From the IMG/VR virus record IMGVR_UViG_2908959467_000003, positions 1 through 50,755 of that record: a DNA stretch of 50,755 nt. One strand, 5' to 3'. Origin of the DNA: a virus. Taxonomy: Duplodnaviria > Heunggongvirae > Uroviricota > Caudoviricetes. The position numbers and the translations under genes were made by a program. This document shows, piece after piece, positions 1 through 50,755 of this stretch (position 1 is its first letter; each line of letters begins with the position of its first letter). The notes below the pieces were generated by a model that saw only the letters and a program-made list of their open reading frames with translations, was not told the origin of the DNA and did not search any database.

Positions 1-1158
1 ATGCTCACCGTTAAGCAGATTGAAGCAGCAAAGCCGAAAGAAAAACCATACCGCCTACTCGATGGTAATGGCCTGTACCTTTATGTCCCTGTATCCGGAA
101 AAAAGGTCTGGCAGCTTCGCTACAAGATTGACGGTAAGGAGAAAATCCTGACCGTCGGAAAATATCCGCTAATGACTTTGCAGGAGGCAAGGGATAAAGC
201 ATGGACCGCGAGGAAAGATATCTCGGTTGGCATCGATCCGGTAAAGGCAAAAAAGGCTTCGTCTAACAACAATTCCTTTAGTGCGATTTACAAGGAATGG
301 TACGAGCACAAGAAGCAAGTCTGGTCAGTAGGCTATGCAACTGAACTTGCAAAAATGTTTGACGACGACATTTTACCTATCATTGGCGGCCTTGAAATTC
401 ATGATATTGAGCCGATGCAACTGCTGGAAGTAATCCGCAGATTTGAAGATCGCGGTGCAATGGAGCGAGCAAATAAAGCCCGCAGAAGATGCGGCGAGGT
501 TTTCCGTTACGCTATTGTCACTGGTAGGGCTAAATATAACCCGGCACCTGACCTTGCTGACGCCATGAAGGGATACCGCAAGAAAAACTTCCCGTTTCTT
601 CCAGCAGACCAGATCCCGGCATTCAACAAAGCACTTGCAACATTTTCAGGAAGTATCGTATCGCTCATTGCGACCAAAGTTTTACGCTACACAGCCCTCA
701 GAACGAAAGAGCTTCGTTCTATGCTATGGAAGAACGTCGATTTTGAAAACAGGATTATCACCATCGACGCCAGTGTGATGAAGGGACGCAAAATTCATGT
801 GGTCCCGATGTCAGACCAGGTGGTTGAACTTCTCACTACGCTAAGCTCCATCACTAAACCAGTATCAGAATTTGTTTTTGCCGGGCGCAACGATAAGAAG
901 AAGCCAATCTGCGAGAACGCGGTGCTACTTGTGATCAAACAAATCGGCTATGAGGGTCTGGAAAGCGGTCACGGATTCAGGCATGAATTCAGCACGATTA
1001 TGAACGAGCACGAATGGCCTTCTGACGCTATTGAAGTGCAACTGGCACATGCCAACGGCGGATCTGTGCGCGGTATTTACAACCATGCTCAGTATCTCGA
1101 TAAGCGCAGAGAAATGATGCAGTGGTGGGCGGATTGGCTTGATGAAAAAACTGAGTGA
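1..1158 (+). CDS. intS: Tyrosine integrase, P4 family (385 aa), IntS-like
   Basis: N-terminal KPYRLLDGNGLYL arm-binding-like region, C-terminal catalytic region (..HGFRHEF..IYNHAQY); recalled similarity to KplE1/CPS-53 IntS. Begins at window position 1. Confidence 0.8.
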   Translation: MLTVKQIEAAKPKEKPYRLLDGNGLYLYVPVSGKKVWQLRYKIDGKEKILTVGKYPLMTLQEARDKAWTARKDISVGIDPVKAKKASSNNNSFSAIYKEWYEHKKQVWSVGYATELAKMFDDDILPIIGGLEIHDIEPMQLLEVIRRFEDRGAMERANKARRRCGEVFRYAIVTGRAKYNPAPDLADAMKGYRKKNFPFLPADQIPAFNKALATFSGSIVSLIATKVLRYTALRTKELRSMLWKNVDFENRIITIDASVMKGRKIHVVPMSDQVVELLTTLSSITKPVSEFVFAGRNDKKKPICENAVLLVIKQIGYEGLESGHGFRHEFSTIMNEHEWPSDAIEVQLAHANGGSVRGIYNHAQYLDKRREMMQWWADWLDEKTE

Positions 1159-1182
1159 CCCACCTTAACAACTATCGAATAG

Positions 1183-1230
1183 CACAAAGCCTTGTAATCA
1201 AGTGCAAGGCTTTGTGTATCCCGTTTTCGC
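1183..1230 (+). terminator. Hairpin terminator downstream of integrase
   Basis: 12-bp inverted repeat CACAAAGCCTTG / CAAGGCTTTGTG (1183..1216) followed by a T-rich tract. Confidence 0.5.
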
Positions 1231-1312
1231 CTAGTTACCACTTCAAAAGTCGATCGGTGGCGATGTCAGTGCTAATATCAGCACAGCAAAAAAGAATGAA
1301 TACGGATGAATA

Positions 1313-3268
1313 ATGAGCTTTCTTTTGAAGACTGACAAAACATTGTCTAAAAATTACCAGCCAGGAGTTGATGGACTCCGTGCTGTTGCCGTCATTTTAG
1401 TTCTTATATTCCATGTAGGGTTCAGTAGTGTTCCAGGAGGGTTTGTTGGCGTTGATGTATTTTTTGTTATTTCTGGTTATCTGATAACTGGAATAATTTT
1501 TAATCAAACTGAGAAGGGAACTTTCAGTTACATTAATTTCATGTTAGCCAGGATAGCAAGACTGTACCCGGCTCTTATAGCAACGCTGATCGCCGTTTTT
1601 GCTGGATGCTTTATTCTGTACTCCCCTTCTGATTTTGTTAGCGTATCTAAATCAGCAATCTATGCTTTGTACTCAGCATCAAATATATTTTTTGCACAAA
1701 GCGTTGGTTATTTCGATACATCATCAGAAATAAATCCATTGTTGCACACATGGTCTCTTGGTGTAGAACAGCAGTTCTATCTTGCATGGCCTCTGATTAT
1801 CGGAGCAGCATATTTAGTAAAAAAGAGCCTTGTGCCATGGGTTCTGGTTATTATTAGTATTGCTTCTCTGGCATCCTCTCAGTGGGCAACTATAAACATG
1901 CAGACTGAAGCGTACTACTGGATGCCGTTCAGGGTTTTTGAGTTGTCTTTCGGCGGACTTGCATTCTTCATTTCTCGATGGATAAAACCATCTGAACTAA
2001 TGAAGGAGTCTATGATGGCTGCGGGACTTGCGATGATAGTATCATCTGCGTTGCTTTACTCATCATCAACTCAGTTCCCTGGTTTGCATGCCATGATTCC
2101 CGTATTGGGTGCCATGCTTTGCATTCTTTCACATGATGCAAAATACGCTGGCTTCGCTGTGAATAACAGGGTCAGCGTTACGATAGGCCTGATATCGTAT
2201 TCAGTTTATCTAATTCACTGGCCTATTATTGTGTTTTACAAATACTGGATATATAGAGAGTTAAATGATATCGAGAAAGCATCATTGATTTTATCTTCGC
2301 TGGCTGTTGGATTCTTAATGTACAACGCAATAGAAAATAAATTCAGAAAGATAAAAATAAATGAGTTTTGCTACAAATCAGTATTGCTTTTATCATTAAC
2401 TATATTGGTTATGATTTCGTATTCATCTTCAATAAAAGACAACGGATTTGCATTTAGAATACAAAATTATAAAGAAAACATGGAAATGCTCAAGCCTGGA
2501 TTTAAAGAATATTTATTCGGAGGCTTTGGGGTTAAGCAAGGTGAAATGGTAGTTCTTGGAGATAAAACCAAAAAGCCATCATTTGTTTTCATGGGTGACA
2601 GTTATGCAAGACAGTATTCATTAGCCATGAGTGAATTTCTTGCAAAGAGAAATCTATCAGCAGCAGCATTTTTCGCTGATGGAGCATATCTATCAAATAG
2701 CGTTTACGTTACAGAAAAAGGGAAGGTTTCTGTATATGGTGTGAAGATAGGAACAAAAGCGATAGATTACTCTAGATATAATAAGATACCACTTGTTTAT
2801 GCACAATCATGGCTTAGGTACATGGGGATGCTATCTGATAAAGATGGTAATGTGTATAAATTCAACGGAGACCATGATTATATGAAATTCAATGCTTCCG
2901 TTATTAACAATATTCAAGAGTACACAAATCAGAAAGTAATTGTTATTGGAAACCACCCGGCAGCAATAGGCTCTGACGGAGGTCTTTCTTGTGTGAGCCG
3001 ACCTTCATATGTTGAAAAGAAATGCATTGATAGTATTTTCAGCACAGAAAGCGGTGATAGGTTAGATAGCAATAATTATTTAAATAAATGGCTATCAGAT
3101 AACGGAAGTATAAAGTTTATAAACCCTTATGATTTCATGTGTAGGAATGGGAGATGTAACCTAGTATCTGACAAAGGTGACGTTATGTATTCTGATGAGT
3201 ATCATCTATCAAGATATGGAGCAAGAAAGGCAATTGAAGGGTTTGGAAATATAATTATCGATATATAA
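1313..3268 (+). CDS. Fused acyltransferase-3 / SGNH-hydrolase membrane protein (651 aa), O-antigen acetyltransferase-like
   Basis: N-terminal multi-TM region with AT3-like motifs (..VDGLRAVAVILV..FFVISGYLITG..), soluble C-terminal domain; AT-rich; sits between int and tailspike where conversion genes are found. Confidence 0.7.
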   Translation: MSFLLKTDKTLSKNYQPGVDGLRAVAVILVLIFHVGFSSVPGGFVGVDVFFVISGYLITGIIFNQTEKGTFSYINFMLARIARLYPALIATLIAVFAGCFILYSPSDFVSVSKSAIYALYSASNIFFAQSVGYFDTSSEINPLLHTWSLGVEQQFYLAWPLIIGAAYLVKKSLVPWVLVIISIASLASSQWATINMQTEAYYWMPFRVFELSFGGLAFFISRWIKPSELMKESMMAAGLAMIVSSALLYSSSTQFPGLHAMIPVLGAMLCILSHDAKYAGFAVNNRVSVTIGLISYSVYLIHWPIIVFYKYWIYRELNDIEKASLILSSLAVGFLMYNAIENKFRKIKINEFCYKSVLLLSLTILVMISYSSSIKDNGFAFRIQNYKENMEMLKPGFKEYLFGGFGVKQGEMVVLGDKTKKPSFVFMGDSYARQYSLAMSEFLAKRNLSAAAFFADGAYLSNSVYVTEKGKVSVYGVKIGTKAIDYSRYNKIPLVYAQSWLRYMGMLSDKDGNVYKFNGDHDYMKFNASVINNIQEYTNQKVIVIGNHPAAIGSDGGLSCVSRPSYVEKKCIDSIFSTESGDRLDSNNYLNKWLSDNGSIKFINPYDFMCRNGRCNLVSDKGDVMYSDEYHLSRYGARKAIEGFGNIIIDI

Positions 3269-26062: not shown

Positions 26063-26231
26063 CGTCTTCTTCCTCGTATATTGAGCTATTCGGATCGCTC
26101 ATCAGTTCTGCGCAGCAGTGCTCACACACGTGAACTTCCAGCACATGCAGCTTCTGACCGCAGTTAGCGCACGTTAAAGCCCGCTCGACGCTTTCTTTCT
26201 GGTATTGAAGGGATTGGGATGGGCTAAGCAT
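26055..26231 (-). CDS. ninF: NinF-like protein (58 aa)
   Basis: [40 protein letters not shown].. zinc-ribbon; start at internal Met. Confidence 0.7.
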
Positions 26232-37810: not shown

Positions 37811-37974
37811 GCGAAATTAATTACCAGGCACTGCGTGAGGTGGCGGAACGTGCAATTCCAGCAATGGAACGCCTGTTAATGTTGCCAGATGATGATGATT
37901 TGTTAAGTGAACAGGAACTTAAAGATTACGGTGTGGATATTGATGCGCTCAACGCCTTCAAATTTCTGACCTGA
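37807..37974 (+). CDS. Small hypothetical acidic protein (55 aa, GTG start)
   Basis: GTG preceded by AAGGAGG 7 nt upstream. Confidence 0.3.
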   Translation: MSEINYQALREVAERAIPAMERLLMLPDDDDLLSEQELKDYGVDIDALNAFKFLT

Positions 37975-37983
37975 CCAGAAACC

Positions 37984-38517
37984 GTGCTGGCGCTGCTGGA
38001 TGAGCTGGAAAGAAACCAGCAATACATCAAACGCCGCGACCAGGAGAACGAGGATATTGCGCTTACGGTTGGGAAGCTGCGCGTTGAGCTTGAAGCAGCA
38101 GAGAACAACCTTATTGATAGTGAATGCCATGTTGCTGAACTGGAAGAAGCGCTACGCGATAAGCAGGCGTTACTTGAAGCCTCTGAAAAGCGCAACGCAA
38201 AATTACAAAGCGAGAATGCATACATCCGCAACCGGTTCAAAGAACTGGACCTGTTAATCGGGAAAAACATTCTGGTCATGCAGGCTGCCATTATCGAATG
38301 GCAGGCAACTGGCGACGCTAAGAGCGGACTGGCATGGATTTATAACACACTGTTTGGCCCTGGCGAATTACCGGACGAATCTGAGAAAGATGCTCAGGCC
38401 TACTTTAATCGCAAATATGCACCGATTGACGAAAAGCTTATGGCGCTTCACAAGTGGTTTTGGGAACAAAGTGAAGCCGAGCGCGCCGCCGCCAACATTG
38501 GTGTGAAGGGGAAGTGA
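37984..38517 (+). CDS. Hypothetical coiled-coil protein (177 aa; start uncertain)
   Basis: Heptad-rich N-terminal half; the track start is a non-ATG codon with no good RBS. Confidence 0.4.
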   Translation: MLALLDELERNQQYIKRRDQENEDIALTVGKLRVELEAAENNLIDSECHVAELEEALRDKQALLEASEKRNAKLQSENAYIRNRFKELDLLIGKNILVMQAAIIEWQATGDAKSGLAWIYNTLFGPGELPDESEKDAQAYFNRKYAPIDEKLMALHKWFWEQSEAERAAANIGVKGK

Positions 38518-38712: not shown

Positions 38713-39099
38713 ATGAATACTCTTACCAAAGAATGGTTACAGAACACGATTACCAGCATTGAGTCAGCACGGGATGAAATACCGTTCGGACTCGATGAAG
38801 ATCAAAACAACATGCTTACCGCATTAAAAATTGCACTGGCATCACTGGGAGCAGAACCAGTTGCTTATATTTTCAAACATCCGGCCGGGAAATTATTCTG
38901 GGCTTTAACGGATGAAAGCAATAAAGATCAATCGGACGTTATTCCTGTTTATGCCGCCCCTCCAGTGCCAGTAGTACCTGAAGAAAAACCAATGCCTAAC
39001 CCTCTTAAAATGTACGCGGTCGATGCTGTTGCCGCTATTGCAGAGGTGAGAGGCTGGAACTCCTGCCGCGCCGCCATGCTTAAGGGAGATAAATCATGA
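38713..39099 (+). CDS. Hypothetical protein (128 aa)
   Basis: Early-left ORF; proline-rich linker. Confidence 0.4.
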   Translation: MNTLTKEWLQNTITSIESARDEIPFGLDEDQNNMLTALKIALASLGAEPVAYIFKHPAGKLFWALTDESNKDQSDVIPVYAAPPVPVVPEEKPMPNPLKMYAVDAVAAIAEVRGWNSCRAAMLKGDKS

Positions 39100-39377
39100 T
39101 TAATCGTACCAAGCTGGAGCACATCCTCGAATATGCCAGACAGCAGAGGCGCTTTGGTCAGCATTGCAAAATTCCGCCAGGAGATATGGTTGAAATCGTG
39201 GAGATTGCCATGCGCAAGGCTGGCAACTCTCCGGTAACTCCGGATGGCTATGCGGACATGCTGCAGCGCTGGCTGGTGTTTGGGATAGGCATGCTAAAAG
39301 CGGGTAGCCAGTTACCACGAAATCTAATCGCTGAAACCAAAGCCATGGTTGCAGCATTACAGCAGGAGGATGAATGA
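39096..39377 (+). CDS. Hypothetical protein (93 aa)
   Basis: ATG with AAGGGAGA RBS. Confidence 0.4.
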   Translation: MINRTKLEHILEYARQQRRFGQHCKIPPGDMVEIVEIAMRKAGNSPVTPDGYADMLQRWLVFGIGMLKAGSQLPRNLIAETKAMVAALQQEDE

Positions 39378-39931: not shown

Positions 39932-40132
39932 ATGCAACACGAACTACAACCTGATTCACTGGTTGATTTGAAATTCATCATGGCCGATACTGGCTTCGGT
40001 AAAACCTTCATCTATGACCGGATTAAGTCCGGCGACCTGCCTAAAGCCAAAGTTATCCACGGGCGAGCAAGATGGTTATATCGTGACCATTGTGAATTCA
40101 AAAATAAGCTCTTAAGCCGCGCCAATGGGTAA
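39932..40132 (+). CDS. torI: Excisionase / recombination directionality factor, TorI/AlpA-like (66 aa)
   Basis: 66-aa winged-helix-type protein (..IMADTGFGKTFIYDRIKSGDLPKAKV..RARWLYRD..) between the two argW-like segments. Confidence 0.65.
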   Translation: MQHELQPDSLVDLKFIMADTGFGKTFIYDRIKSGDLPKAKVIHGRARWLYRDHCEFKNKLLSRANG

Positions 40133-40205: not shown

Positions 40206-40220
40206 CTGCAGGGGACACCA
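40206..40220 (+). other. Putative att core: 15-nt match to the 3' terminus of argW (CTGCAGGGGACACCA)
   Basis: Exact 3'-terminal tRNA-Arg sequence including CCA; no tRNA body upstream; 160 bp upstream of the second integrase. Confidence 0.6.
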
Positions 40221-40380
40221 TGAACACTTCTCACTAAGTCCAATTAATTCCATAACTCACTGTTTTAACTGATATCATCTCCTTATACTCGTCCAGCAAA
40301 GTACCATTATTTCTAATGGAATCTATACATCTTTGCGTATAACATTGTGTATAACTGAGTTCGATCTTTTTTCTATACAC

Positions 40381-41556
40381 ATGCTGCTATCTGACATCCA
40401 AATAAAAAGAGCAAAACCGAAGGACAAACCCTATACGCTTAACGATGGTATGGGGCTATCACTCCTGATCGACACAGCGGGCAGTAAAGGCTGGCGTTTT
40501 CGCTATCGCTTTGCAGGTAAGCCTAAGATGATTTCCTTTGGCGTATATGGCGATGTGTCGTTGGCACAGGCACGTACCAAACGTGATGAAGCGCGTTCGA
40601 TGTTAGCCAAAGGGATAAACCCAAGTGAAGCCAGAAAAGCAGATAAGATTGCTTTGCAGTTCGCGCATGAGAACAGCTTTGAGTCTGTGGCCAGAGAATG
40701 GCACTCATCGAAAAAAGCCACCTGGTCAGAGGGTTATGCAAAAGAGGTTCTCAATTGTATGGAAAAGGATATTTTTCCTTTTATCGGCCAGCGCCCAATT
40801 GAGCAGATTGAACCATTAGAACTGCTAACCGTCCTGCAAAAAATAGAGAAAAGAGGTGCGCTAGAGCAAACCAGTAAGATCCGCCGCCGCTGTGGTGAAG
40901 TGCTTCGTTATGCTGTTGCCACTGGTAGAGCAAAGTATAATTTTGCACCCGATTTAGCTATCGCACTCAACAAACCTAAAACCCAACACTTCCCGTTCCT
41001 GACTGAAAGCGAGTTGCCCGAGTTCGTTAATGCTCTGGATAACTATCAGGGCAGTTTAGTTACCAAATACGCCACGCAGCTGTTGATGCTAACAGGCGTG
41101 CGAACAATTGAACTACGTGCAGCGGAATGGGCTGAGTTTGATTTAGATAATGCCTTATGGGAGATCCCCAAAGAACGGATGAAGAAACGCCGCCCCCATC
41201 TGGTTCCGTTATCAACTCAGGCGATCAATATCCTGAAAAAGCTGCAAGAAATAACAGGGAATTACAGCCTCGTTTTCCCTGGCCGAAATGACGTCAGGAA
41301 ACCAATGAGCGAAGCCAGCATCAACAAAGTGATAAAACTACTGGGTTATCACGGTCGGTTAACGGGTCACGGTTTCAGGCATACCATGAGCACCATCTTG
41401 CATGAGCATGGGTTTGAAAGTGCCTGGATTGAAATGCAGCTTGCGCATGTTGATAAGAACTCTATTCGAGGTACTTACAATCATGCGCAATATATTAAAG
41501 ATCGACAAGTAATGATGGAATGGTACGCTAGCTTATTAAATACGACCTGCTATTAA
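40381..41556 (+). CDS. Tyrosine integrase, P4 family (391 aa)
   Basis: MLLSDIQIKRAKPKDKPYTLNDGMGL.., ..RRRCGEVLRYAVATGRAKYNFAPDLA.., ..HGFRHTMST..; paralogous to the int at 1..1158. Confidence 0.85.
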   Translation: MLLSDIQIKRAKPKDKPYTLNDGMGLSLLIDTAGSKGWRFRYRFAGKPKMISFGVYGDVSLAQARTKRDEARSMLAKGINPSEARKADKIALQFAHENSFESVAREWHSSKKATWSEGYAKEVLNCMEKDIFPFIGQRPIEQIEPLELLTVLQKIEKRGALEQTSKIRRRCGEVLRYAVATGRAKYNFAPDLAIALNKPKTQHFPFLTESELPEFVNALDNYQGSLVTKYATQLLMLTGVRTIELRAAEWAEFDLDNALWEIPKERMKKRRPHLVPLSTQAINILKKLQEITGNYSLVFPGRNDVRKPMSEASINKVIKLLGYHGRLTGHGFRHTMSTILHEHGFESAWIEMQLAHVDKNSIRGTYNHAQYIKDRQVMMEWYASLLNTTCY

Positions 41557-42486
41557 ATCCAGCATGAAACAAATATGGTGAGTAATTTGATACTGTTTGT
41601 TTTTTGGCAACCCAGGGAAATGCCTTACAGTTGGTTGACTATTGTAATAATAATAGTTAAGACCAATGTTGCTGCCAAACTGGGTTGGATGTTGGGGAAC
41701 AAGATTTGTAATTTGATCTGAAACATCTAAAAATTTTGCAGTAACATTTGAACTTCCTCGTTGCGTGTTGCTTGATACAAAATGACGAATCCAAACTGTA
41801 TTCGCTTGTAAATTCTTGAACACCAAATGTGCGGCAACAGCAGAAGGTTGACCACCTCCAAGATCTAGTACCTGGCCAGTAATTGTATAATCGCCAAATC
41901 CTAAGTAATTTTGTCCCACGAATTGATGTGCGTGCGTGAAAAGTTCCGGCCCATTATAATCAGCATTTTTTGCTAACTTTCTAAAGTTATCGCTAATAAT
42001 AATTAACTTCGACAAAGGAAGAAGAGCGCACTGATTAGGAAGCATTTTATTATTTAAAACAACATGATAACTAATCAATTGATTTGTCGCCAACAACTGA
42101 ATATCAGAGTTGGATAATGATGGATTATCATATAGAAGTGCAACTCGTCTATTTAAGTTAGCATTCAACCAATTATTAATATCATTAATCGTTGTATTGG
42201 GCTGAATAAGATATCCAGAGATGATATTGTTTTTATTTGTTAATACACTTGATAAATTTTGATTTAAAGTTAAGACGTTATTGTGTGAAGAAAAATCTTC
42301 CTGATAAGGATTAAGGATAACAATTATGTCAGAATTCCAAACATTTAAACATGTTAATAAATTTCTCGTATTGACGTTAATTGGTTCTAAAATTGGTAGC
42401 AGACCATTTAGGCTAACTCCCTTCGCAACGAGGTCCCTAAGGCATAATAACTCTGTACTTCTCGCATACAAATATGGGCTATACAT
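41536..42486 (-). CDS. Cargo protein B (316 aa), unknown function; second gene of an AT-rich two-gene operon
   Basis: N/S/L-rich low-GC ORF, 21 nt after gene A; no recognised motif; 3' end overlaps the convergent int by 21 bp. Confidence 0.6.
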   Translation of the reverse strand: MYSPYLYARSTELLCLRDLVAKGVSLNGLLPILEPINVNTRNLLTCLNVWNSDIIVILNPYQEDFSSHNNVLTLNQNLSSVLTNKNNIISGYLIQPNTTINDINNWLNANLNRRVALLYDNPSLSNSDIQLLATNQLISYHVVLNNKMLPNQCALLPLSKLIIISDNFRKLAKNADYNGPELFTHAHQFVGQNYLGFGDYTITGQVLDLGGGQPSAVAAHLVFKNLQANTVWIRHFVSSNTQRGSSNVTAKFLDVSDQITNLVPQHPTQFGSNIGLNYYYYNSQPTVRHFPGLPKNKQYQITHHICFMLDLIAGRI

Positions 42487-42507
42487 AACTTACAACTCCT
42501 GAGGATA

Positions 42508-43389
42508 TCAACAAATTTTAATTTTTACATCCATCAAATTCATGATGAATTCTTTTTGCTTTCTTGATAATGGTGTTGCATAACCTAAAACACGTAAACA
42601 TGCTGGAAGAGAATAAATATAATCCAAAAAAACTTTGTCGTTACATCTTTTTTTCATAGCAGAGATAAAGTATTTATTTGCTATGTTTAATGGCATCTGC
42701 ATGAATATCTCTTTACAATATTCATAAACCAATCCATTAGGCATATTTATTTTAGTTGAAGTGTAATCTTCTATTATAGCTAAGAACTCTTCCTTTCTAA
42801 GAACTGAAAACAAGCTGTCACTTTTAATATAATCAATATTTGAATCTGCCTCCTTAATGACACTCAATTGATCTTTTTTATTCAAAACCATAACTCCCAC
42901 TCTGGGGAGATTTAAAGCACAATATTTACTTGCATACTCTGGATGTGTAACTATATACACTTTATCAAAAACATCCAAATAATCAGGGGCTTGAGTAATC
43001 AACCTTTTTGGTGAATCATACTCTGTCTTAATCTCGTAAGCTGTAGACGTACCATTAAACACCGCAACATCCACTATAGAGTTTTTAATTGGTAACTCTA
43101 TGGACGACGAACTTGTTTTTGGGCTGTGCTTACCGAATATTATTTTATTGACAAGTGCTGTCTTATAAACATATTCATTTCTATAATTCAGACGCAAAAA
43201 ATCATATAATGATGTAAATAAATCCCTTAGTGAAATCTCATGTTCATTATTATCATTGTTTGAAAACAGTGTTTCATAGCAGTAAGAATCAAAACTCCCA
43301 AATAAATCCGAAATATCCTTACCTTTTGCTAAGGATGAAAAAATGGGGCGACGGAAAAATTTAGCATATTCCTTTTTATTATGACTCAT
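42508..43389 (-). CDS. Cargo protein A (293 aa), putative PD-(D/E)xK nuclease-fold protein
   Basis: ..SIELPIKNSIVDVAVFNGTSTAYEIKTEYD.. gives the E / hydrophobic-D / E-x-K arrangement; AT-rich. Confidence 0.6.
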   Translation of the reverse strand: MSHNKKEYAKFFRRPIFSSLAKGKDISDLFGSFDSYCYETLFSNNDNNEHEISLRDLFTSLYDFLRLNYRNEYVYKTALVNKIIFGKHSPKTSSSSIELPIKNSIVDVAVFNGTSTAYEIKTEYDSPKRLITQAPDYLDVFDKVYIVTHPEYASKYCALNLPRVGVMVLNKKDQLSVIKEADSNIDYIKSDSLFSVLRKEEFLAIIEDYTSTKINMPNGLVYEYCKEIFMQMPLNIANKYFISAMKKRCNDKVFLDYIYSLPACLRVLGYATPLSRKQKEFIMNLMDVKIKIC

Positions 43390-44069
43390 TACTCATACTC
43401 TATAAACATCATGCAATTTGATAAGTTATGACGAATTCTCACCATCCAGTTACTACCTGTACATACTAATCAAAAAAAACGAGTACGCAAGATACGAAAG
43501 TACTTTTCTTGTTCACCAGTTAGCTTACCTTGATCCTCACCAGCGACTGGAAGATAGGTAGCAGTATATGTGGAAACCTTCCCCTAGCTAGGTCTACAAA
43601 CGTAGTTTGGGCATTTAGGCTCCACGATTCACGGTTTGACACGGCCTGATATCTGCACATTCGTTTTGATATGCAGCAATCGTGAAAAAGGGAAAATATA
43701 CGCTCGACAGACCAAAACGGCACTACACCGCACCCGCCTGCGGTTTTCATATCACTAAAAATTTTCAGCCTGGATTTTTTACAAACGATACCGCCAGTCC
43801 GTGCCAGTCCTCGAGATGTACTGCGATACAGGAACTGAAAAGAATGAAAAGAAATTCATTTTTTTTCAGTTTTACTGTCCGTCGAATCTATGGCCTGAAT
43901 ACGCAACTCTATGATATTAAATGGATAATTAATTTTAGGTGTGTGATTTTATGAAGGTTTGTGAAACATGAAGAAGATAACCAGTTGAAAAATAATAATT
44001 TTATGACCGTATAAACTGAAATCCTGTGTTCAGGTTCCGGGAACAGATCGGCCATTCCCGACGCATACT

Positions 44070-44342
44070 TTACCCATTCTTTTGCGCAGCCAGCAGCAAC
44101 TTTAAAGCCTTTTCCCGTTCCTCGGGTGGAATTGCATCAATCAGCTCTTTAACCCTTCCCTGCCCGTTCAGCGCGCTTGGACTAACGGAATGGGAGAAAG
44201 CAACATTCATCACAAACGAGTGACCGCACTCCACATTAGAGCAATAGCAGTACACATCGTACAGTTGTGGGTGTTTCCTGTTTGTTTTACCTATCCGTGC
44301 TACTGCCTGACATGTGGGGCAGTACATTCTCATCATCTTCAT
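44070..44342 (-). CDS. ogr: Ogr/Delta-family zinc-finger late-gene activator (90 aa; start may be an internal Met)
   Basis: C-x2-C...C-x4-C pattern (MYCPTCQ..CYCSNVEC) as in P2 Ogr / P4 Delta. Confidence 0.7.
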   Translation of the reverse strand: MKMMRMYCPTCQAVARIGKTNRKHPQLYDVYCYCSNVECGHSFVMNVAFSHSVSPSALNGQGRVKELIDAIPPEEREKALKLLLAAQKNG

Positions 44343-44408
44343 CGTTCTGTGCCCTATACTGTTGCCCGCCAGAAGAAGGGATTTGGATCCCTACCTCTTG
44401 TTCTGAAC

Positions 44409-44598
44409 GTGTAACACTGGTAACACGTGTAACGCTATTGATTTAAAAGGATTTAATCTGTTACCAGTTAGCAAAATCAAGAGGTAACGCGTGGTAACAC
44501 ACCATTTTTTGTTACCTCTGTTACCAGTCAGTATTTTTGACTGGTAACACTGAAGAACCGCATCAGTAACGGGTGTTACCTCTGTTACCAGTGTTACC
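44409..44598. repeat. Iteron cluster: at least 12 copies of (G)GTAACAC / GTGTTACC in about 190 bp, P4 crr/ori-like
   Basis: Repeats read directly; motif TGTTACC is one base from the recalled P4 alpha-binding octamer TGTTCACC. Confidence 0.65.
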
Positions 44599-44624
44599 TC
44601 ATAAAAATAAGACTCACGCGATAA

Positions 44625-47312
44625 TCACTCAGGTTCAGCGCTTCCCAGTACCTGTGTATTGAACTGGTACACACGTTTAAGCCCTATTTCTGGCAGGCGA
44701 ATGCTGTTTTGCGTCCGGCCATCTTCACCGGGTTTCAGCCAGCCCGCGTCCACACACAACCTGGCCACCTTACGCGAGTCAAATCCCTTACAGATCTCCT
44801 TCCAGCCTGACGGGAGAACGTAGAACGTCACAACCGGCTCTGTCACGTTGTCTCCTTTATCGACTTTTCTGAATCCCATCATTGAAACAGGCCGGTTCCT
44901 GTCGTCATTCCAGTCAGCAAACCGACTGAACTGATTACGCGTCATGAAGTCCCGAACCTGTTCAAGTGCCGCTTTATCTTCCTGATTAGCTGTATGGCCC
45001 CGGTCAGCCATCCATGCAGCCAGACAGCTTTGAGCGGCACGAAAGGCCTCTCCCTCCGGCCATCCTGTGATGCCCGCTTTTGTGGCCAGCTCCCCGGCCA
45101 TCGCAACCAGAGCAAAACGGGTAACAGCCCGGCCAACCTGATTCCCGGCATTTTCCGGCGTCAGCCTTCGGGTATACTCTTTCAATAAGGCTTTCGCCTG
45201 ACTGGTCAGTTCCGGCAGATCAGCGGTCAGGCAATACAGCCAGTCGCGGAATGGTGCACCATGATAATGCGCTACGTGCTGCTCAAGATGCTCAGCCAGG
45301 GTTTTCCCGCTACTGAAGCCATGAAGTTCTTCAAACACGCCATACTTGCCCGAATCGCTTGGGATCTGGATCATTCTGACCTCAACCCCGGCATACGTAC
45401 GTTCCCCGGCGCTTGCCGCATGCTCTACCAGTGACAGTTCCCCGGTAGACAGAAACAACAGATTCCAGCGGTTGGTTTCCCTTACCGAACCATCTGTTCT
45501 GGCTCTGGCTTTGCCCTGCCCGTTAGCCAGCATATAAGCGATATTCCCCGCCTCCCTGCCGTCAACCTCCCGGATTTCATCCAGCATCAGCGTGGCATCA
45601 TTGCGGCGGCTCGCCGTTCCTTCTAAGGCATTCCCCGTCGCCCGCCACGTATGCCAGAAATCTGTTCCACCACATACTGATGCAGCCACTTTCATCGTCG
45701 TGGTTTTACCGTCTGTGGATTCCCCTTTGAGGTGATAACCTCCACCGCCGATACCAACCAGTTTCAGAAGGGGGGCAGCAAATGCCAGACTCACCGCAAA
45801 GGCAAGACGGGCATTCTTTATGCAATAACGGCCTATATTTTCACGCCAGCCCTCTGATGTGCCGCTGACACGAAAATCACGCCCCTGCACACTCGATGTT
45901 TGTAAGATGACTGACTGGGCTTCGCGCCCTATCACTTCATCCTGGAGAACGTAAACCCCGCCGTGCCAGCCAGTTTTATTCACACAGGTTACTTTTCTGT
46001 CCGGTTTACACAGCGAGATATATTCCATCAGGAATGCTCTGGCCATGCCATTAATGTTGATGTAAGAAAGCCCGTTAACCAGCAGAACGCGGCGCAGTTC
46101 TTCCCCGCTACCGCCCAGCATCTCCATCGGCATTGCCCATTTACGGCTGTTTCCGTTGGTATCTTCCCATTCCAGCAAACGCCCGTAATTACTTCCATCA
46201 GCATCACTGGTGATTGCCGTCACCCGCAACGGACTGCAAATTTTGATATTACGTATCTCTGTATCACCATCAGACTTATTAACCAGCTTGTCGTACCACA
46301 AATATTCTTTTGTCAGCCGGAACCCTTCTGGTAAACGGGTCTGCCCTTTGCCATGCAGCGTCATTTCTTCACGAAAGGCATCTCTCGCCCGTTCTTTCCC
46401 CACTTCCTGCCGATAATCATCCCAGTCAGCCTTATGGCGTACCGGAGGGAGCGTTACCCAGCCATCCACCGCTTTGGCGGCTTTCTCTGCCTGAATACGC
46501 CCGGTGTTTTCTTTGCCGTCAGCCAGATCATTATCTCCGGCCAGAATGATCCGAGTTTCCGGCCAGCGTTTTCGGATCTGCTCCGTCACCTTCAGTAAAT
46601 TGGTGGCAGCGACAGCCGCCACGATCCATCCTTCAGTCAGCAGACTGACGGTAAGCGCCGTGGCAAAACCCTCAGTGATAATCACCTGTTCAGGTGTTTC
46701 AGCGGGTATATCGGTCAGGGCAATGAATGCGCCAGACAGCTGGCTACCGGGCAGCAGACTTTTATCCCCGTCAGGATTGATAAGCTGGCCACCAGTAATA
46801 TTCCCGGAAATATCCGTCAAAGGCAGCAGTAATGAACCGGTGGAAAATGTTATTCCGGCCAGATTCAAAGGCTGTGACAGCAAGGGAAGTGAATACCCGT
46901 GTAAGCCCTTATTTGTCAGATAGACCGGCTCACCATTGCAGGACTGCTGTCTGAGTCTGGTATATCGCTCCGCGCCCGCTTCTTTTCCTGCGGCCTTTTT
47001 CCTGGCTGGCAATGCGGGCTTCTCCTGTATTTCTGGTAATGCAAGCGCCTCAGATACCATCCCGGCGACTTCTTTTATCTTTCTTCCTGTCACCAGACGA
47101 ACCAGATCAAGACCATCGCCATGACCGCACTGATTACAAAACCACGTCCCTCGCCCCGCTTTATCGTCCAGTCGAAAACGATCTTTTCCACCACAGGCAG
47201 GGCAAGCCCCATGATGTCCTGCGGACGGTACTTTAATACCTAATGCTGACAGGATATAAGGCCAGCGCCCAATTGCAGCTCCGGAAATCGTGGATACAGA
47301 CGGTGTTTTCAC
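44625..47312 (-). CDS. Primase-helicase, P4 alpha-type (895 aa)
   Basis: N-terminal zinc-binding primase motif (CPACGGKDRFRLDD..WFCNQCGHGDG), central P-loop (GESTDGKTTT). Confidence 0.85.
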   Translation of the reverse strand: MKTPSVSTISGAAIGRWPYILSALGIKVPSAGHHGACPACGGKDRFRLDDKAGRGTWFCNQCGHGDGLDLVRLVTGRKIKEVAGMVSEALALPEIQEKPALPARKKAAGKEAGAERYTRLRQQSCNGEPVYLTNKGLHGYSLPLLSQPLNLAGITFSTGSLLLPLTDISGNITGGQLINPDGDKSLLPGSQLSGAFIALTDIPAETPEQVIITEGFATALTVSLLTEGWIVAAVAATNLLKVTEQIRKRWPETRIILAGDNDLADGKENTGRIQAEKAAKAVDGWVTLPPVRHKADWDDYRQEVGKERARDAFREEMTLHGKGQTRLPEGFRLTKEYLWYDKLVNKSDGDTEIRNIKICSPLRVTAITSDADGSNYGRLLEWEDTNGNSRKWAMPMEMLGGSGEELRRVLLVNGLSYININGMARAFLMEYISLCKPDRKVTCVNKTGWHGGVYVLQDEVIGREAQSVILQTSSVQGRDFRVSGTSEGWRENIGRYCIKNARLAFAVSLAFAAPLLKLVGIGGGGYHLKGESTDGKTTTMKVAASVCGGTDFWHTWRATGNALEGTASRRNDATLMLDEIREVDGREAGNIAYMLANGQGKARARTDGSVRETNRWNLLFLSTGELSLVEHAASAGERTYAGVEVRMIQIPSDSGKYGVFEELHGFSSGKTLAEHLEQHVAHYHGAPFRDWLYCLTADLPELTSQAKALLKEYTRRLTPENAGNQVGRAVTRFALVAMAGELATKAGITGWPEGEAFRAAQSCLAAWMADRGHTANQEDKAALEQVRDFMTRNQFSRFADWNDDRNRPVSMMGFRKVDKGDNVTEPVVTFYVLPSGWKEICKGFDSRKVARLCVDAGWLKPGEDGRTQNSIRLPEIGLKRVYQFNTQVLGSAEPE

Positions 47313-47719
47313 AGCAGCACCTCCTGACCTTCCGGCTTCACAAATTCAAAACCTTCGGGTAGTTCGCCATCAGGTGCTCCGAAAATAATATCCCGGTAAA
47401 CCTCACGCATCTCTGTGACACCAAAAACTGACAGGCGAATATTTTCTGACATAAAGCCTGGTTTAAGCATTTTTTCCAGTTTCTCTGCGGCCAGTATGCA
47501 ACCAGCATCAGCCCCAAACTCATTCACCCACGGCATTTCAATATGGTAAATAATATTACTCACCACTTTTTCGTGGGAGAGTTCTATTCGTTCGCCATCT
47601 TCAATATAAACAGGTTCATTATGAACACGCACCATTAAGGAAATGAATGCATCAGCAATGTAGTAGCGTAAGACTGCTGTTCGTAAAGCATGCGCCTTTA
47701 AATTTTGATTATTATTCAT
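47309..47719 (-). CDS. Hypothetical protein (136 aa) upstream of the primase
   Basis: Overlaps primase start; position analogous to P4 epsilon/orf151. Confidence 0.45.
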   Translation of the reverse strand: MNNNQNLKAHALRTAVLRYYIADAFISLMVRVHNEPVYIEDGERIELSHEKVVSNIIYHIEMPWVNEFGADAGCILAAEKLEKMLKPGFMSENIRLSVFGVTEMREVYRDIIFGAPDGELPEGFEFVKPEGQEVLL

Positions 47720-47948
47720 CGCGCATCACTCCCTTAATTGTGCTGGTTTCCTTAACAACGCCATCCAGTTGTTCGGCAATACAGGCCACTAAAGCCGCAG
47801 CGCCTTCCGCTGAAACAGTTCTCGCTCCATTCACTGTGGGCACGGACAAGACCTCTGCAAGAAACTCACTGGCCAGTGCCGCCCGTAACAGACGACTCTC
47901 CCCCTGTTCACTCAATATGCAGCCTTGCTTAAAATTCATGGATTTCAT
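47712..47948 (-). CDS. Hypothetical protein (78 aa)
   Basis: Operon member; no motif. Confidence 0.4.
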   Translation of the reverse strand: MKSMNFKQGCILSEQGESRLLRAALASEFLAEVLSVPTVNGARTVSAEGAAALVACIAEQLDGVVKETSTIKGVMRDE

Positions 47949-48148
47949 GCAACCACCTCCCCGGCTCTTTTCACAGGGATACGGGCAGCAAAGCTCAGGA
48001 TAAATTCAGTGGCAAGTTTAAGGCGTGCAGCATGCTCGCATTCTGCGATTACACGCACAGGGCGTGGACGGGCATCACGGTCTGTACGGCGGACAGCCAG
48101 AAAGACAAAGGTAAATTCAGGGTGAGATAAAGCAGGGACTGTAGCCAT
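47945..48148 (-). CDS. Small hypothetical protein (67 aa), first gene of the alpha operon
   Basis: ATG at 48148 with GAAGGAGG RBS; the longer track ORF to 48535 is an unsupported extension. Confidence 0.4.
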   Translation of the reverse strand: MATVPALSHPEFTFVFLAVRRTDRDARPRPVRVIAECEHAARLKLATEFILSFAARIPVKRAGEVVA

Positions 48149-48160
48149 AATGGCAACCTC

Positions 48161-48425
48161 CTTCAGATAGCGGGTAACGCTACCACCGGAGTTCCTACGC
48201 TCATGGGTGGTAGCCCAGACGGGGGTAGGAATACCGGCTCTGAAGGATACCGGCCAGCCCGAAAGCTGCCCCGCCTGGACTACCATAATTCTGATGATGT
48301 GGCGTAAAAAATAAAAAAATACAATCAGCCACCACACCATAAATTTTAGGTGAGTCAAAGCTGCGACACAAAAAAACACGCCTGGCGCGTGTAGTATCGC
48401 CTTCAGATAACACGGGTTCCTACGC
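48161..48425 (-). promoter_or_regulatory. Candidate RNA immunity region (P4 seqA/cI/seqC-like) with internal terminator
   Basis: Two direct copies of CTTCAGATA..GTTCCTACGC (48401..48425, 48161..48200) flank a reverse-complement copy (48225..48247); hairpin + U7 at 48370..48392. Confidence 0.4.
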
Positions 48426-48577
48426 CCGGCTGCCGATTTTGCGGCAACCTTTAAACTATATCCCGCGCATTCCTGGTGAGGCAAGAAATTTATAACCGAA
48501 AACTGATCATTGCCTGGATTAATTAACGCTGGCATGCTTAAGCCTCTGCTTAAAAATAGTTCTTCATTTTTCCTGAT

Positions 48578-48608
48578 GCTGTAAACGAGACCCGCCTCTG
48601 AGCGGGTC
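48578..48608 (-). terminator. Hairpin terminator after capsid-like gene
   Basis: Minus-strand GACCCGC-UCAGAG-GCGGGUC followed by UCGUUUAC. Confidence 0.45.
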
Positions 48609-48622
48609 TTTCTGTCGCTAAG

Positions 48623-49627
48623 TCAATCCGCAAACGTCAGGGCGCTCTCATCGACAGCCGCGTACAGTTCAGGTTCACCGAGTGCATAACCTTCATTGCG
48701 CAGGTAGGAATGCACGTATTCACTGCTTTCATCATCAAACTCAGCACGAAACCAGCGTGTTATCGCCTGAGTGTAAATATGCAGATTATCCAGCGTCGTT
48801 ACTGCCAGACGCTTACCCGGCATAAACGGGGGAATAAACGCAAAGCGGCCAGCAACAGAACTTGTAGCCATCTGTGCCGCATTCACATCAGACGGGCGGT
48901 CTGCGGCATTAAATAACTTCAGGCGTTGATGTGCTGCCAGCTCTGCCCCAACCAGTACAACCAGACGAGGATCTTCACGAAACTGCTCAGCAATAAGCTC
49001 TGTAATCAGATGGTTGGCCAGAGCATCAATATTTTTCCAGGTGCCAGTCTCTCCCAGAGTGACAGGCTCAGAGATGATTTGCTTTCCGTTCCCGTAGGCT
49101 TTCGCCAGTGCATGCCAGCCAATATTGACATCCTCGCCTTTTTTATTGATTTCCGGGTTTGTAGTATTTGCAATCGACACACCATTGAAACCGACCCGCA
49201 GCATGTCCAGCGCATATGCCTGGGCAAAAAAGCTCTCAACCGTTTTCTCAAACTCATCCGGCACGCCGGTATGGTAAATATGAGACATATCGGAATAGCT
49301 GATCCGGGCGCAGGTATCCGTCTCTGTCAGAAAGAACTCCGTACCATTGATTGCCATTTTTTTGTGGAAACGGCCACCATCCACACGTCCGGTATACAGT
49401 TCACTGGCACCAATATTGACGGCATTACCTGACACGGCGTTAACATCACGTAGGGTAATATTTTTAATAAGCCACCCGGATTCCAGAATTGAGGTACGCA
49501 GTATATTTTCAGTAGGTTCGCTTAATGCAAAGCGTCTGTTTGATTCTTCCTGATAGTTAGTGCCAGTGACGAATTTATTATGATAACGACGTGCTGCGTC
49601 CGGCCTTTCAGTTTTGAAGGCATACAT
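48623..49627 (-). CDS. P2 gpN-family major capsid-like protein (334 aa)
   Basis: Blocks alignable to recalled P2 gpN (GFNGV, ..IGW.., DALANHLITELIAEQFREDPRLVVLVG, LDNLHIY); from memory, unverified. Confidence 0.5.
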   Translation of the reverse strand: MYAFKTERPDAARRYHNKFVTGTNYQEESNRRFALSEPTENILRTSILESGWLIKNITLRDVNAVSGNAVNIGASELYTGRVDGGRFHKKMAINGTEFFLTETDTCARISYSDMSHIYHTGVPDEFEKTVESFFAQAYALDMLRVGFNGVSIANTTNPEINKKGEDVNIGWHALAKAYGNGKQIISEPVTLGETGTWKNIDALANHLITELIAEQFREDPRLVVLVGAELAAHQRLKLFNAADRPSDVNAAQMATSSVAGRFAFIPPFMPGKRLAVTTLDNLHIYTQAITRWFRAEFDDESSEYVHSYLRNEGYALGEPELYAAVDESALTFAD

Positions 49628-49649
49628 AGTTTTTCACCTTTTTAAGTAT

Positions 49650-50510
49650 TTAAGAAAAGATTTTATTTTTGTACTCAGTAACCAGATTGTATTTCATTAC
49701 ATGCTCAACATAATCCCGGTCACTTACGACTGAACGTAATACATAATTATCTGCTCGATAGTACTCCCTGTAAGCCATAGCTCTTGCCATTCCACCGTTA
49801 TTTAATACATAACGATCAGTTGGAACGCTACAACGACTAATAATTTCACTCACGGAATCAGATAAAGACTTGAGTGCATCAGTAATAAATTTAATATCAC
49901 GGACAACGTCACTGTCATTAAATACAGAAATAAAATCAGCAGGGATCTGGCCGGATTGAGGAAATATATTCAGTAAACGCTTATCGATTCCCTTCCCAAT
50001 GTAGTTTCCTTCATCGGCCAGTACTCCCGGCAAAAGCTTGATCGTGCTCAATCGACTATGTTGTTCATTCAACCGGGAAACAGCCAGATGGTAATACCGT
50101 TCAGCATCCGCTCGTTCAGCATGCCCCATTTTATTCGTTTTGGCTTCAGCAATGCTACTGACGCCGTTTTTTGAGAATGTGCTTTTCCATGCAACTTCCG
50201 CATTTGTCACTTCACGCTGCCGGAAAGATAACTCTTCCTCTTCCTGACGACACAACTGGGCATAACGGCTCAGGAGCAGGTTGATCTCATTCGCCACAGT
50301 TTCCGTATCAGGTACTGTTAACCCCGTAAGTGAATACAGCTTTTCACCTTTAGCTCGCAGCTTATTCAGTGAATATATTTCAATAATACGCACAATACAG
50401 GCCGTGTCGCTATGAGTCTCTTTAAATGATCTTACTTTGTAACTATCTAACACCGACACATGTTCGTTCTTAATTGATGCCAATTTCTTCTTAAAAACAT
50501 TGTCAACCAT
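49650..50510 (-). CDS. Hypothetical protein (286 aa), AT-rich, unknown function
   Basis: Low-GC ORF between AlpA and the capsid-like gene; no recognised motif. Confidence 0.5.
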   Translation of the reverse strand: MVDNVFKKKLASIKNEHVSVLDSYKVRSFKETHSDTACIVRIIEIYSLNKLRAKGEKLYSLTGLTVPDTETVANEINLLLSRYAQLCRQEEEELSFRQREVTNAEVAWKSTFSKNGVSSIAEAKTNKMGHAERADAERYYHLAVSRLNEQHSRLSTIKLLPGVLADEGNYIGKGIDKRLLNIFPQSGQIPADFISVFNDSDVVRDIKFITDALKSLSDSVSEIISRCSVPTDRYVLNNGGMARAMAYREYYRADNYVLRSVVSDRDYVEHVMKYNLVTEYKNKIFS

Positions 50511-50527
50511 ATATTTGCCACCTCAAT

Positions 50528-50755
50528 TTAGGAGTTTAATTTTCTATTGAGAATATTCTTCTCTATCCATTCATTAACTTCATGCTCCACCCATGCAACA
50601 GAACGAGAACCGATAGAAACTTGGTTCGGAAATTCATCATTCTTTATCTTTAGATAAATTGTTGACTTGGGTAAGCCAGTCAAATTAATCACTTCTGATA
50701 TTCTCAGAAGTCTATATCTTTTTTGGGGTGCGTTTTCCCGAGGCAATAAGCTCAT
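50528..50755 (-). CDS. alpA: AlpA-family transcriptional regulator (75 aa)
   Basis: ..RLLRISEVINLTGLPKSTIYLKIKNDEFPNQVSIGSRSVAWVEHEVNEWI matches the AlpA HTH signature; start codon is the last 3 nt of the window. Confidence 0.75.
   Translation of the reverse strand: MSLLPRENAPQKRYRLLRISEVINLTGLPKSTIYLKIKNDEFPNQVSIGSRSVAWVEHEVNEWIEKNILNRKLNS

Follow-up and report, generated by a model that had tools for sequence, protein, structure and literature searches.

An 11.0-kb element with a capsid protein paralogue at argW of Escherichia coli, probably a P4/PICI-hybrid satellite of ESSI-2-like Peduoviridae

We analyzed the viral record IMGVR_UViG_2908959467_000003 over its whole length of 50,755 nucleotides (hereafter the window), to which the chromosome of Escherichia coli E62 (NZ_CP022393.1) is 100% identical. 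The left 40 kb (1-40205) is a P22-like prophage whose morphogenesis genes share 96% identity with those of phage IME10, and its annotation includes intS, torI, ERF, the nin genes, and a LexA-type (CI-like) repressor. The element described here follows it, extending from window position 40206 to about 51220 (11.0 kb) with its last ~465 bp outside the window; its integrase gene is on the plus strand and all its other genes are on the minus strand. An earlier sequence-only reading had proposed a P4-like satellite integrated in tandem with the P22-like prophage, naming an integrase, cargo, an Ogr/Delta gene, iterons, and a primase-helicase. That reading did not include the P2-family capsid gene (48623-49627), the RNAs of C4 and isrK-like type at 48203-48461, the candidate cos site at 43710-43875, or the AlpA gene (50528-50755).

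A search for tRNA genes within the window found none, and in E62 the window begins 160 bp downstream of a complete argW tRNA-Arg gene. The 15-bp sequence CTGCAGGGGACACCA, identical to the argW 3′ end, occurs in the window as a single copy at 40206-40220, where ~0.06 matches would be expected by chance with up to two mismatches allowed. The integrase gene (40381-41556) starts 161 bp after it, in line with the proposed P4-family integrase near a tRNA-Arg core. The element had been thought to reach the window edge, with a far att repeat to be sought rightwards; it indeed continues for ~465 bp past the edge, up to the repeat ATTCCTGCAGGGGACACCA, which starts ~450 bp past the window end and occupies window-equivalent 51202-51220 (positions 26103-26121 of the sequence with our handle L001). 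Beyond this repeat lie the chromosomal csc sucrose genes, dsdA, and emrKY. Moreover, in D6, G3X16-2, Ec387, and other genomes, a 100% match begins exactly at window position 40206, and the element is alone at argW. Because this 11.0-kb element occurs on its own at argW in many E. coli genomes, it is independent of the P22-like prophage, and one larger phage was ruled out by these solitary copies together with the csc genes past the far repeat. The satellite integrase is 46% identical to the prophage IntS (1-1158), which agrees with the suggestion that the two are paralogues with a shared argW 3′-end target. The tandem of prophage and satellite is an ordinary arrangement of two integrases on one tRNA target, and the neighboring P22-like prophage, which is not of the helper type, is a mere co-tenant of the att site. 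The following features were located in the element.

40206-40221, plus strand: satellite attL, identical with the attR of the P22-like prophage; displaced argW 3′-end repeat, CTGCAGGGGACACCA(T).
40381-41556, plus strand: P4-family tyrosine integrase (Pfam Arm-DNA-bind_3, Phage_int_M, and Phage_integrase; 40% identity to P4 Int).
41536-43389, minus strand: cargo pair sce7725 (41536-42486) and sce7726 (42508-43389) (NCBIfam 1e-71 and 1e-51; GC content 0.30-0.36).
43710-43875, unstranded: candidate cos site of the ESSI-2 type, 165 bp, matching the joined termini of the ESSI-2, ev015, and ev040 genomes.
43723-43737, unstranded: cohesive-end equivalent, CTACACCGCACCCGC, the exact reverse complement of the ESSI-2 terminal 15-mer.
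44070-44342, minus strand: Ogr/Delta-type zinc-finger late activator (Pfam Ogr_Delta, 5e-14).
44399-44600, unstranded: iteron cluster, GTTAC/GTAAC in both orientations, putative replication origin or crr.
44625-47312, minus strand: primase-helicase of 895 aa with a P4-alpha-like Zn-ribbon/Toprim primase and a DUF927 helicase (Pfam Zn_Ribbon_Prim, Toprim_3, and DUF927).
47309-47948, minus strand: two small genes for a 136-aa and a 78-aa protein (PHROG families without assigned function).
47945-48148, minus strand: Icd-like cell-division-inhibitor gene (NCBIfam phage_ICD_like, 3.5e-18, at residues 141-188 of the annotated open reading frame [ORF]).
48203-48290, minus strand: C4 antisense RNA of P4/P1-type immunity (Rfam C4, 81 bits; gathering score 45).
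48371-48448, minus strand: isrK-like RNA (Rfam isrK, 69.5 bits; gathering score 50).
48409-48461, minus strand: a1/b1 target sites (Rfam c4-a1b1, 43.8 bits, below the gathering score of 46.7).
48623-49627, minus strand: full-length paralogue of the P2-family (GpN-like, HK97-fold) major capsid protein (Pfam Phage_cap_P2, 1e-66).
49650-50510, minus strand: orphan 286-aa all-alpha protein, a family-specific marker.
50528-50755, minus strand: AlpA/Vis-type regulator-excisionase (Pfam Phage_AlpA, 5e-20; 46% identity to P4 ORF88/Vis).

The Phage_cap_P2 match of the satellite capsid protein covers profile positions 16-325 of 327, and the protein also matches PDB entries 7JW1 (P2 gpN) and 7OZ4. Its best phage relative is the capsid protein of ESSI2_ev015 (Peduoviridae, Quadragintavirus), with 48.8% identity over 96% of the length, versus ~25% identity to the capsid proteins of P2-like phages (Peduovirus). 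It is collinear with the capsid proteins of ev015 and ESSI-2, from which it is set apart solely by one-residue indels and a shorter C-terminal tail. At 73% identity between E. coli and Cronobacter, the capsid protein is encoded by the second most conserved gene of the element, and this conservation argues for a functional capsid gene. The gene is the last of an operon that starts with AlpA and has the 286-aa protein in between, with intergenic gaps of 17 and 22 bp. A confident AlphaFold2 model of the 286-aa protein (pLDDT, 87.5) is all helical. We found 105 homologues of ~288 aa, the named ones almost all from Enterobacteriaceae, with a Pfam domain in none, and comparison of the family with Sid and Psu by hhalign gave probabilities of 0.6% and 0.3%, respectively. 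We propose from its position that this protein might act as a capsid-assembly partner or size determinant. The satellite, at 11.0 kb, is roughly 37% of the size of an ESSI-2-like phage genome (28.8-30.9 kb).

The presence of an Ogr/Delta zinc-finger gene, claimed earlier, was borne out. Its product shares 52% identity with the Ogr-like protein of ESSI2_ev015 and 50% with the ESSI-2 counterpart, versus ~20% with P4 Delta. Window positions 43708-43872 match both ends of the linear ev015 record when these are joined. The ESSI-2 record carries GCGGGTGCGGTGTAG (15 nt) at both termini, a cohesive-end signature, and a 28-nt stretch of the window containing 43723-43737 is identical to ESSI-2. A Nextera adaptor is found exactly at the cos point in the ev015 and ev040 records and therefore marks physical DNA ends. 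As a matter of record quality, positions 1-47 of the ESSI2_ev015 entry (LR597649 / NC_049395) are adaptor contamination, as is the Nextera sequence embedded at the cos junction (~29.6 kb) of the ESSI2_ev040 entry (NC_049393).

We then aligned the cos regions of 3 phages and 8 satellites, the latter from E. coli E62 and R12, Cronobacter, Franconibacter, two Enterobacter, Siccibacter, and one probably mislabelled assembly. About 165 bp is conserved, with an invariant 19-nt cos core, and homology ends ~20 bp from the core on its left (cargo) side, beyond which the sequences are unrelated. The exact core is present in at least 120 IMG/VR viral contigs, 80 of which carry ESSI-2-like terminase, portal, or tail genes; the satellite-type matches in IMG/VR, considered as possible virion-derived 11-kb contigs with ends at cos, are prophage predictions or fragments and give no evidence of packaging. 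The element was also searched for a P2/P4 cos, and no match to the P4 cos junction was found. We read the block at 43710-43875 as a cos site shared with ESSI-2-like phages.

Judged by these comparisons, the module for helper exploitation (Ogr, cos, and the capsid paralogue) is related to ESSI-2-like Peduoviridae and does not come from the P4/P2 pair. Because the capsid gene, cos, and Ogr are all of the ESSI-2 type, we infer that phages of this group (Seongnamvirus, Quadragintavirus, and relatives) are the likely helpers, rather than P2 itself. The functional relationship of the satellite to a helper, which the sequence-only reading had called unclear, is narrowed accordingly to the extent that these three independent features point to an ESSI-2-like helper. 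ESSI2_ev015 and ev040 belong to a collection of E. coli phages, and prophages of the ESSI-2 type are found in complete E. coli genomes, for example in EH09-18-41 (NZ_CP063503).

Other small elements with the identical 19-nt cos core were also encountered, namely, L108 (IMGVR_UViG_2751185772_000009), L052 (IMGVR_UViG_2874084528_000002), and L021. Their Ogr proteins are mostly 70-76% identical to the satellite Ogr (56% in L021), and they encode neither the capsid paralogue nor the 286-aa protein. In L108, an integrase and DUF4222 are accompanied by a D5-type helicase and a cargo of SLATT plus reverse transcriptase, and one protein of L052 shares 84% identity with P4 alpha. ESSI-2-like phages may thus be exploited by several satellite lineages.

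The gene order of AlpA, 286-aa protein, capsid protein, C4/Icd, 78-aa protein, 136-aa protein, primase, iterons, Ogr, cos, and cargo is common to every complete relative. Between the E. coli and Cronobacter elements, protein identities are 82% for the primase, 74% for AlpA, 73% for the capsid protein, 68% for Ogr, and 49% for the 286-aa protein. In E. coli R12, the core is kept at 98-100% protein identity at another locus, with a 59%-identical integrase at the AlpA end and DprA plus HAD as cargo, which indicates that the element has moved recently and that cargo is exchanged at a hotspot beside cos. Such a hotspot parallels those described for P2 and P4 by Rousset et al. (PMC9122126). Cargo containing DprA is also located directly beside cos in an ESSI-2-like prophage of E. 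coli 20KM0223N (L010 6001-9424), as it is in the R12 satellite (L009 6547-8757), echoing the P2/P4 defense hotspots. The satellite (at least 80% of the element) was detected in at least 421 of the 5426 complete E. coli genomes, many of them of sequence type 131 (ST131), and the cos region in 499. A complete, enterobacterial-type member of this satellite family was also found in contig NZ_JBQPOM010000063.1 (L017) of "Vagococcus sp. WN89Y"; the Gram-positive label of this assembly is probably wrong, or the assembly is contaminated.

The claim of an alpha-type primase-helicase held for the primase part, residues 5-317 of which share 38% identity with the corresponding part of P4 alpha. The helicase is not of the D5 type: the helicase and C-terminal DNA-binding part of P4 alpha is replaced by DUF927, which matches a SaPI protein (8TCH) and SCCmec Cch (5DGK). 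The predicted iterons were confirmed as 13 GTTAC/GTAAC units in the 282 bp that separate ogr from the stop codon of the primase gene, a region that also holds 6 of the 7 window copies of TGTTACC. They are directly 3′ of the primase-helicase gene, and the same cluster is found at the same place in the Cronobacter relative.

The cargo expected after the integrase is the sce7725/sce7726 pair (41536-43389; GC, 30-36%), which is separated from the Ogr/Delta gene by a 680-bp gap. Sce7726 matches the PADLOC "cll" model (1e-18) and is 39% identical to P4 cII over 61 aa; this cII-like match was the only one in the PADLOC scan, and sce7725 was not recognized by it. The same slot holds DprA plus HAD in E. 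coli R12 and DUF5343 in Cronobacter, and we regard the cos-adjacent slot as exchangeable cargo that probably acts against phages.

The immunity region shows 71% DNA identity to the P4 cI region over 423 bp, the sole DNA-level homology to P4. The RefSeq coding sequence of the Icd-like protein (196 aa, 47945-48535) runs across the C4 and isrK-like RNA genes, and an internal ATG at 48148 stands behind a strong Shine-Dalgarno sequence, GAAGGAGG; the true ORF is probably 47945-48148, with the annotated one over-extended. An ORF overlapping the C4 RNA region matches Pfam Phage_ASH (4.5e-33), a family that models that translated RNA region, and through this match a SatelliteFinder-type scan might score the Epsilon/Ash component as present. 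The 136-aa protein weakly resembles DUF5375 / P4 orf106, below threshold here, and DUF5375 is on record for its Cronobacter orthologue. The 78-aa protein occupies the position that epsilon has in P4 and showed no similarity to P4 epsilon by BLAST.

Upstream of alpA, outside the window, the dyad TGTGCAAGTATATATACA, a copy of the TGT-N12-ACA motif, lies 56-73 bp from the gene; it recurs in the Cronobacter relative, and in an Enterobacter relative one half-site is altered. The right arm, likewise outside the window, contains 10-bp-periodic repeats of the AATAATGGTGA type (L001 25781-25824 and 25930-25978; window-equivalent 50880-50923 and 51029-51077), possibly arm sites for Int/AlpA and similar in the relatives, together with a (GGGCT)9 microsatellite.

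Several observations concern the neighboring prophage. It uses an IntS/TorI recombination module of the KplE1/CPS-53 type (window 1-3268 and 39932-40132), and an acyltransferase gene adjoining intS (1313-3268) may modify the O-antigen. In its early region (window 37865-38517 and 38713-39270; L001 12765-13418 and 13614-14170), an ead/Ea22-like gene contains an internal stop and two DUF551 genes are annotated as truncated, a minor decay in a prophage that otherwise looks intact.

The element was compared with known satellites, starting from the seven-component definition of P4-like satellites implemented in SatelliteFinder (de Sousa & Rocha; PMC8628076, PMC10085698). Of these components, the integrase, Delta (Ogr-type), and an AlpA-type regulator are present, and Sid and Psu are not, with no match of any element protein to P4 Sid or Psu by BLAST. 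Of the other traits of P4-like satellites, C4-type immunity is present and a shared P2/P4 cos is absent. By the seven-component definition, with alpha and epsilon equivocal, the element would be at best a degenerate "Type C" hit, and a psu-anchored survey (Rousset 2022, PMC9122126) would not include it. It is like P4 in its size (~11 kb), in tRNA-gene integration by a P4-family integrase, in Vis/AlpA, in C4-type antisense-RNA immunity followed by a kil/icd-like gene, in an orf106-like gene, in the alpha-type primase domain, in iterons 3′ of the replication gene (as crr in P4), in Ogr/Delta, and in a hotspot from cos to int whose cargo includes the cII-like gene sce7726. Unlike P4, it lacks the sid-delta-psu operon, an epsilon homologue, and the P2/P4 cos, has DUF927 instead of a D5-type helicase, possesses genes for a full-length major capsid protein and an orphan helical protein, and carries Ogr and cos of the ESSI-2-like lineage. 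Being without sid, psu, an epsilon homologue, and P2/P4 cos, and homologous to alpha in the primase half only, it is not P4-like in the strict sense, and the earlier name has to be given up to this extent.

The loosely defined layout of Gram-negative phage-inducible chromosomal islands (PICIs) was found as well, with int, alpA, a primase-replicase, an origin 3′ of rep, its own att sites, a size within 10-15 kb, and no tail or lysis genes. To EcCICFT073 and PmCI172 (PMC6092414), the element is similar in being an int-alpA-primase/replicase island, in the origin 3′ of the replication gene, in a helper-type cos at which packaging would occur, and in a helicase with a relationship to SaPI Rep; a homologue of the capsid protein is likewise found in PmCI172, whose capsids are small (PMC6092414). 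The satellite differs from these PICIs in having P4-type C4 RNA immunity and an Ogr/Delta activator and in having no rpp or terS, and its predicted helper is a P2-family myovirus, not a lambda/phi80-like or Mu-like phage. In SaPIbov5, the capsid-protein homologue Ccm redirects capsid size (PMC6092414), and our element similarly combines an HK97-fold paralogue of the helper capsid protein with a copy of the helper cos; SaPIbov5 comes from Staphylococcus, an unrelated lineage and host, and the likeness is one of strategy alone, as judged here from the genes. Capsid-forming PICIs (cf-PICIs) bring their own capsid protein too. These islands encode a complete head module of capsid protein, portal, protease, connectors, TerS, and TerL, whereas in this element, all of whose remaining ORFs are accounted for, only the capsid protein of that module is present. 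An identity as a cf-PICI was ruled out on the ground that the element has just a capsid protein and one partner protein.

From these comparisons, we consider it likely that the element is a mosaic P4/PICI-hybrid satellite of ESSI-2-like Peduoviridae. Its P4-type modules are the argW integrase, Vis/AlpA, C4 immunity with the Icd-like gene, the orf106-like gene, and the alpha primase domain. A life cycle can be proposed by analogy with P4 and PICIs. The C4 RNA would keep the integrated satellite quiescent until infection by, or induction of, an ESSI-2-like phage switches on the AlpA operon and replication; AlpA and Int would then excise the element at the 15-19-bp argW repeats, and the primase-helicase would replicate it at the iterons. 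The satellite and helper Ogr proteins would cross-activate late genes, and the satellite capsid protein, perhaps aided by the 286-aa protein, would assemble or co-assemble with the helper scaffold-protease and portal into capsids sized for ~11 kb or would bias assembly toward such capsids. Helper terminase would cut and package satellite concatemers at the shared cos, and helper tails and lysis functions would complete the transfer.

A number of points weigh against the hybrid-satellite reading. Packaging and capsid redirection are proposed by analogy with P4 and PICIs, the helper is inferred from the three features above, and the 15-nt length of the cohesive end is taken from GenBank records. 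The cos region occurs once in E62, which thus has no resident helper of the ESSI-2 type. ESSI-2-like terminase-portal DNA (at least 80% query coverage) is present in only 44 of the 5426 complete E. coli genomes, so the helper lineage is rare; set against a satellite in at least 421 of these genomes, this suggests that the satellite would usually depend on an incoming phage or may often be stranded. The E. coli copies are mostly at least 99% identical, a pattern that an immobile island passed on vertically could also produce. Structure and profile comparisons of the 286-aa protein returned no informative relative, and the role proposed for it follows from its position only. No epsilon-like anti-repressor was identified in the element. 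Finally, TGT-N12-ACA motifs are not enriched (8 found versus ~10 expected), and the O/P intergenic region of the putative helper contains no exact copy; on these two counts, the motif was dropped as a late-promoter candidate and retained as a lead.

The lack of a resident helper in E62, the rarity of the helper lineage in E. coli, and the near-identity of most copies would fit a non-mobile island, that is, a decayed P4-like island fused with ESSI-2-like prophage remnants (capsid gene, ogr, and cos) and kept for its cargo. We regard this as unlikely, however, since all ORFs are intact, the gene order and size are kept in at least six genera at 45-82% protein identity with an invariant cos core, the same core occurs at a different locus with a different integrase, and the element is equipped with a replicon and an immunity system of its own. 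Nor was the capsid protein captured recently, because its identity to phage capsid proteins does not exceed 49%.

Together with the 286-aa protein, the capsid paralogue could instead serve mainly for interference or defense, as a device that poisons the capsid assembly of invading P2-family phages and does not build a shell for the satellite, which might use full-size heads or not be packaged at all. A full-length, collinear, and strongly conserved capsid protein is what would be expected of an assembling subunit, and a genome about one third the size of the helper's fits a small-capsid strategy; these features make such a device improbable to us, although satellites commonly block their helpers through capsid proteins (PMC6092414) and the cargo/defense hotspot adjoins cos. 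L108 and L052 also share the cos and a similar Ogr without having the capsid gene, and the gene may therefore be dispensable for packaging at this cos. Least probable of all is a canonical P4-like satellite dependent on a P2/186-type (Peduovirus) helper, which the sequence-only reading had implied, as the homology to P4 in integrase, Vis/AlpA, C4 RNA, and primase domain, the Ogr/Delta domain, and the size of ~11 kb are countered by the lack of any sid, psu, or epsilon homologue and of a P2/P4 cos match, by an Ogr and a capsid protein about twice as similar to those of ESSI-2-like phages as to those of P2/P4, and by a cos block of the ESSI-2 type.

If the element is a hybrid satellite of ESSI-2-like phages, then it may, more tentatively, represent a distinct and widespread family of enterobacterial satellites in which the Sid/Psu scaffold has been swapped for a capsid paralogue and a helical partner and which parasitizes ESSI-2-like phages by way of a shared cos and Ogr. 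Our full-text search of the literature returned no description of it as a separate family, which is absence of evidence within that scope. The satellite is present in ~8% of complete E. coli genomes, including ST131. Were this true, the family would stand between P4, which steals a whole capsid, and the cf-PICIs, which bring a whole capsid, and it would offer a tractable E. coli system for a third route of capsid piracy in the P2/P4 world, by means of a capsid paralogue instead of an external scaffold. Current satellite catalogues, which take psu and sid as anchors, may overlook or misclassify a common family found in the pandemic ST131, for which the ESSI-2-like phages are now named as a concrete and testable helper lineage.

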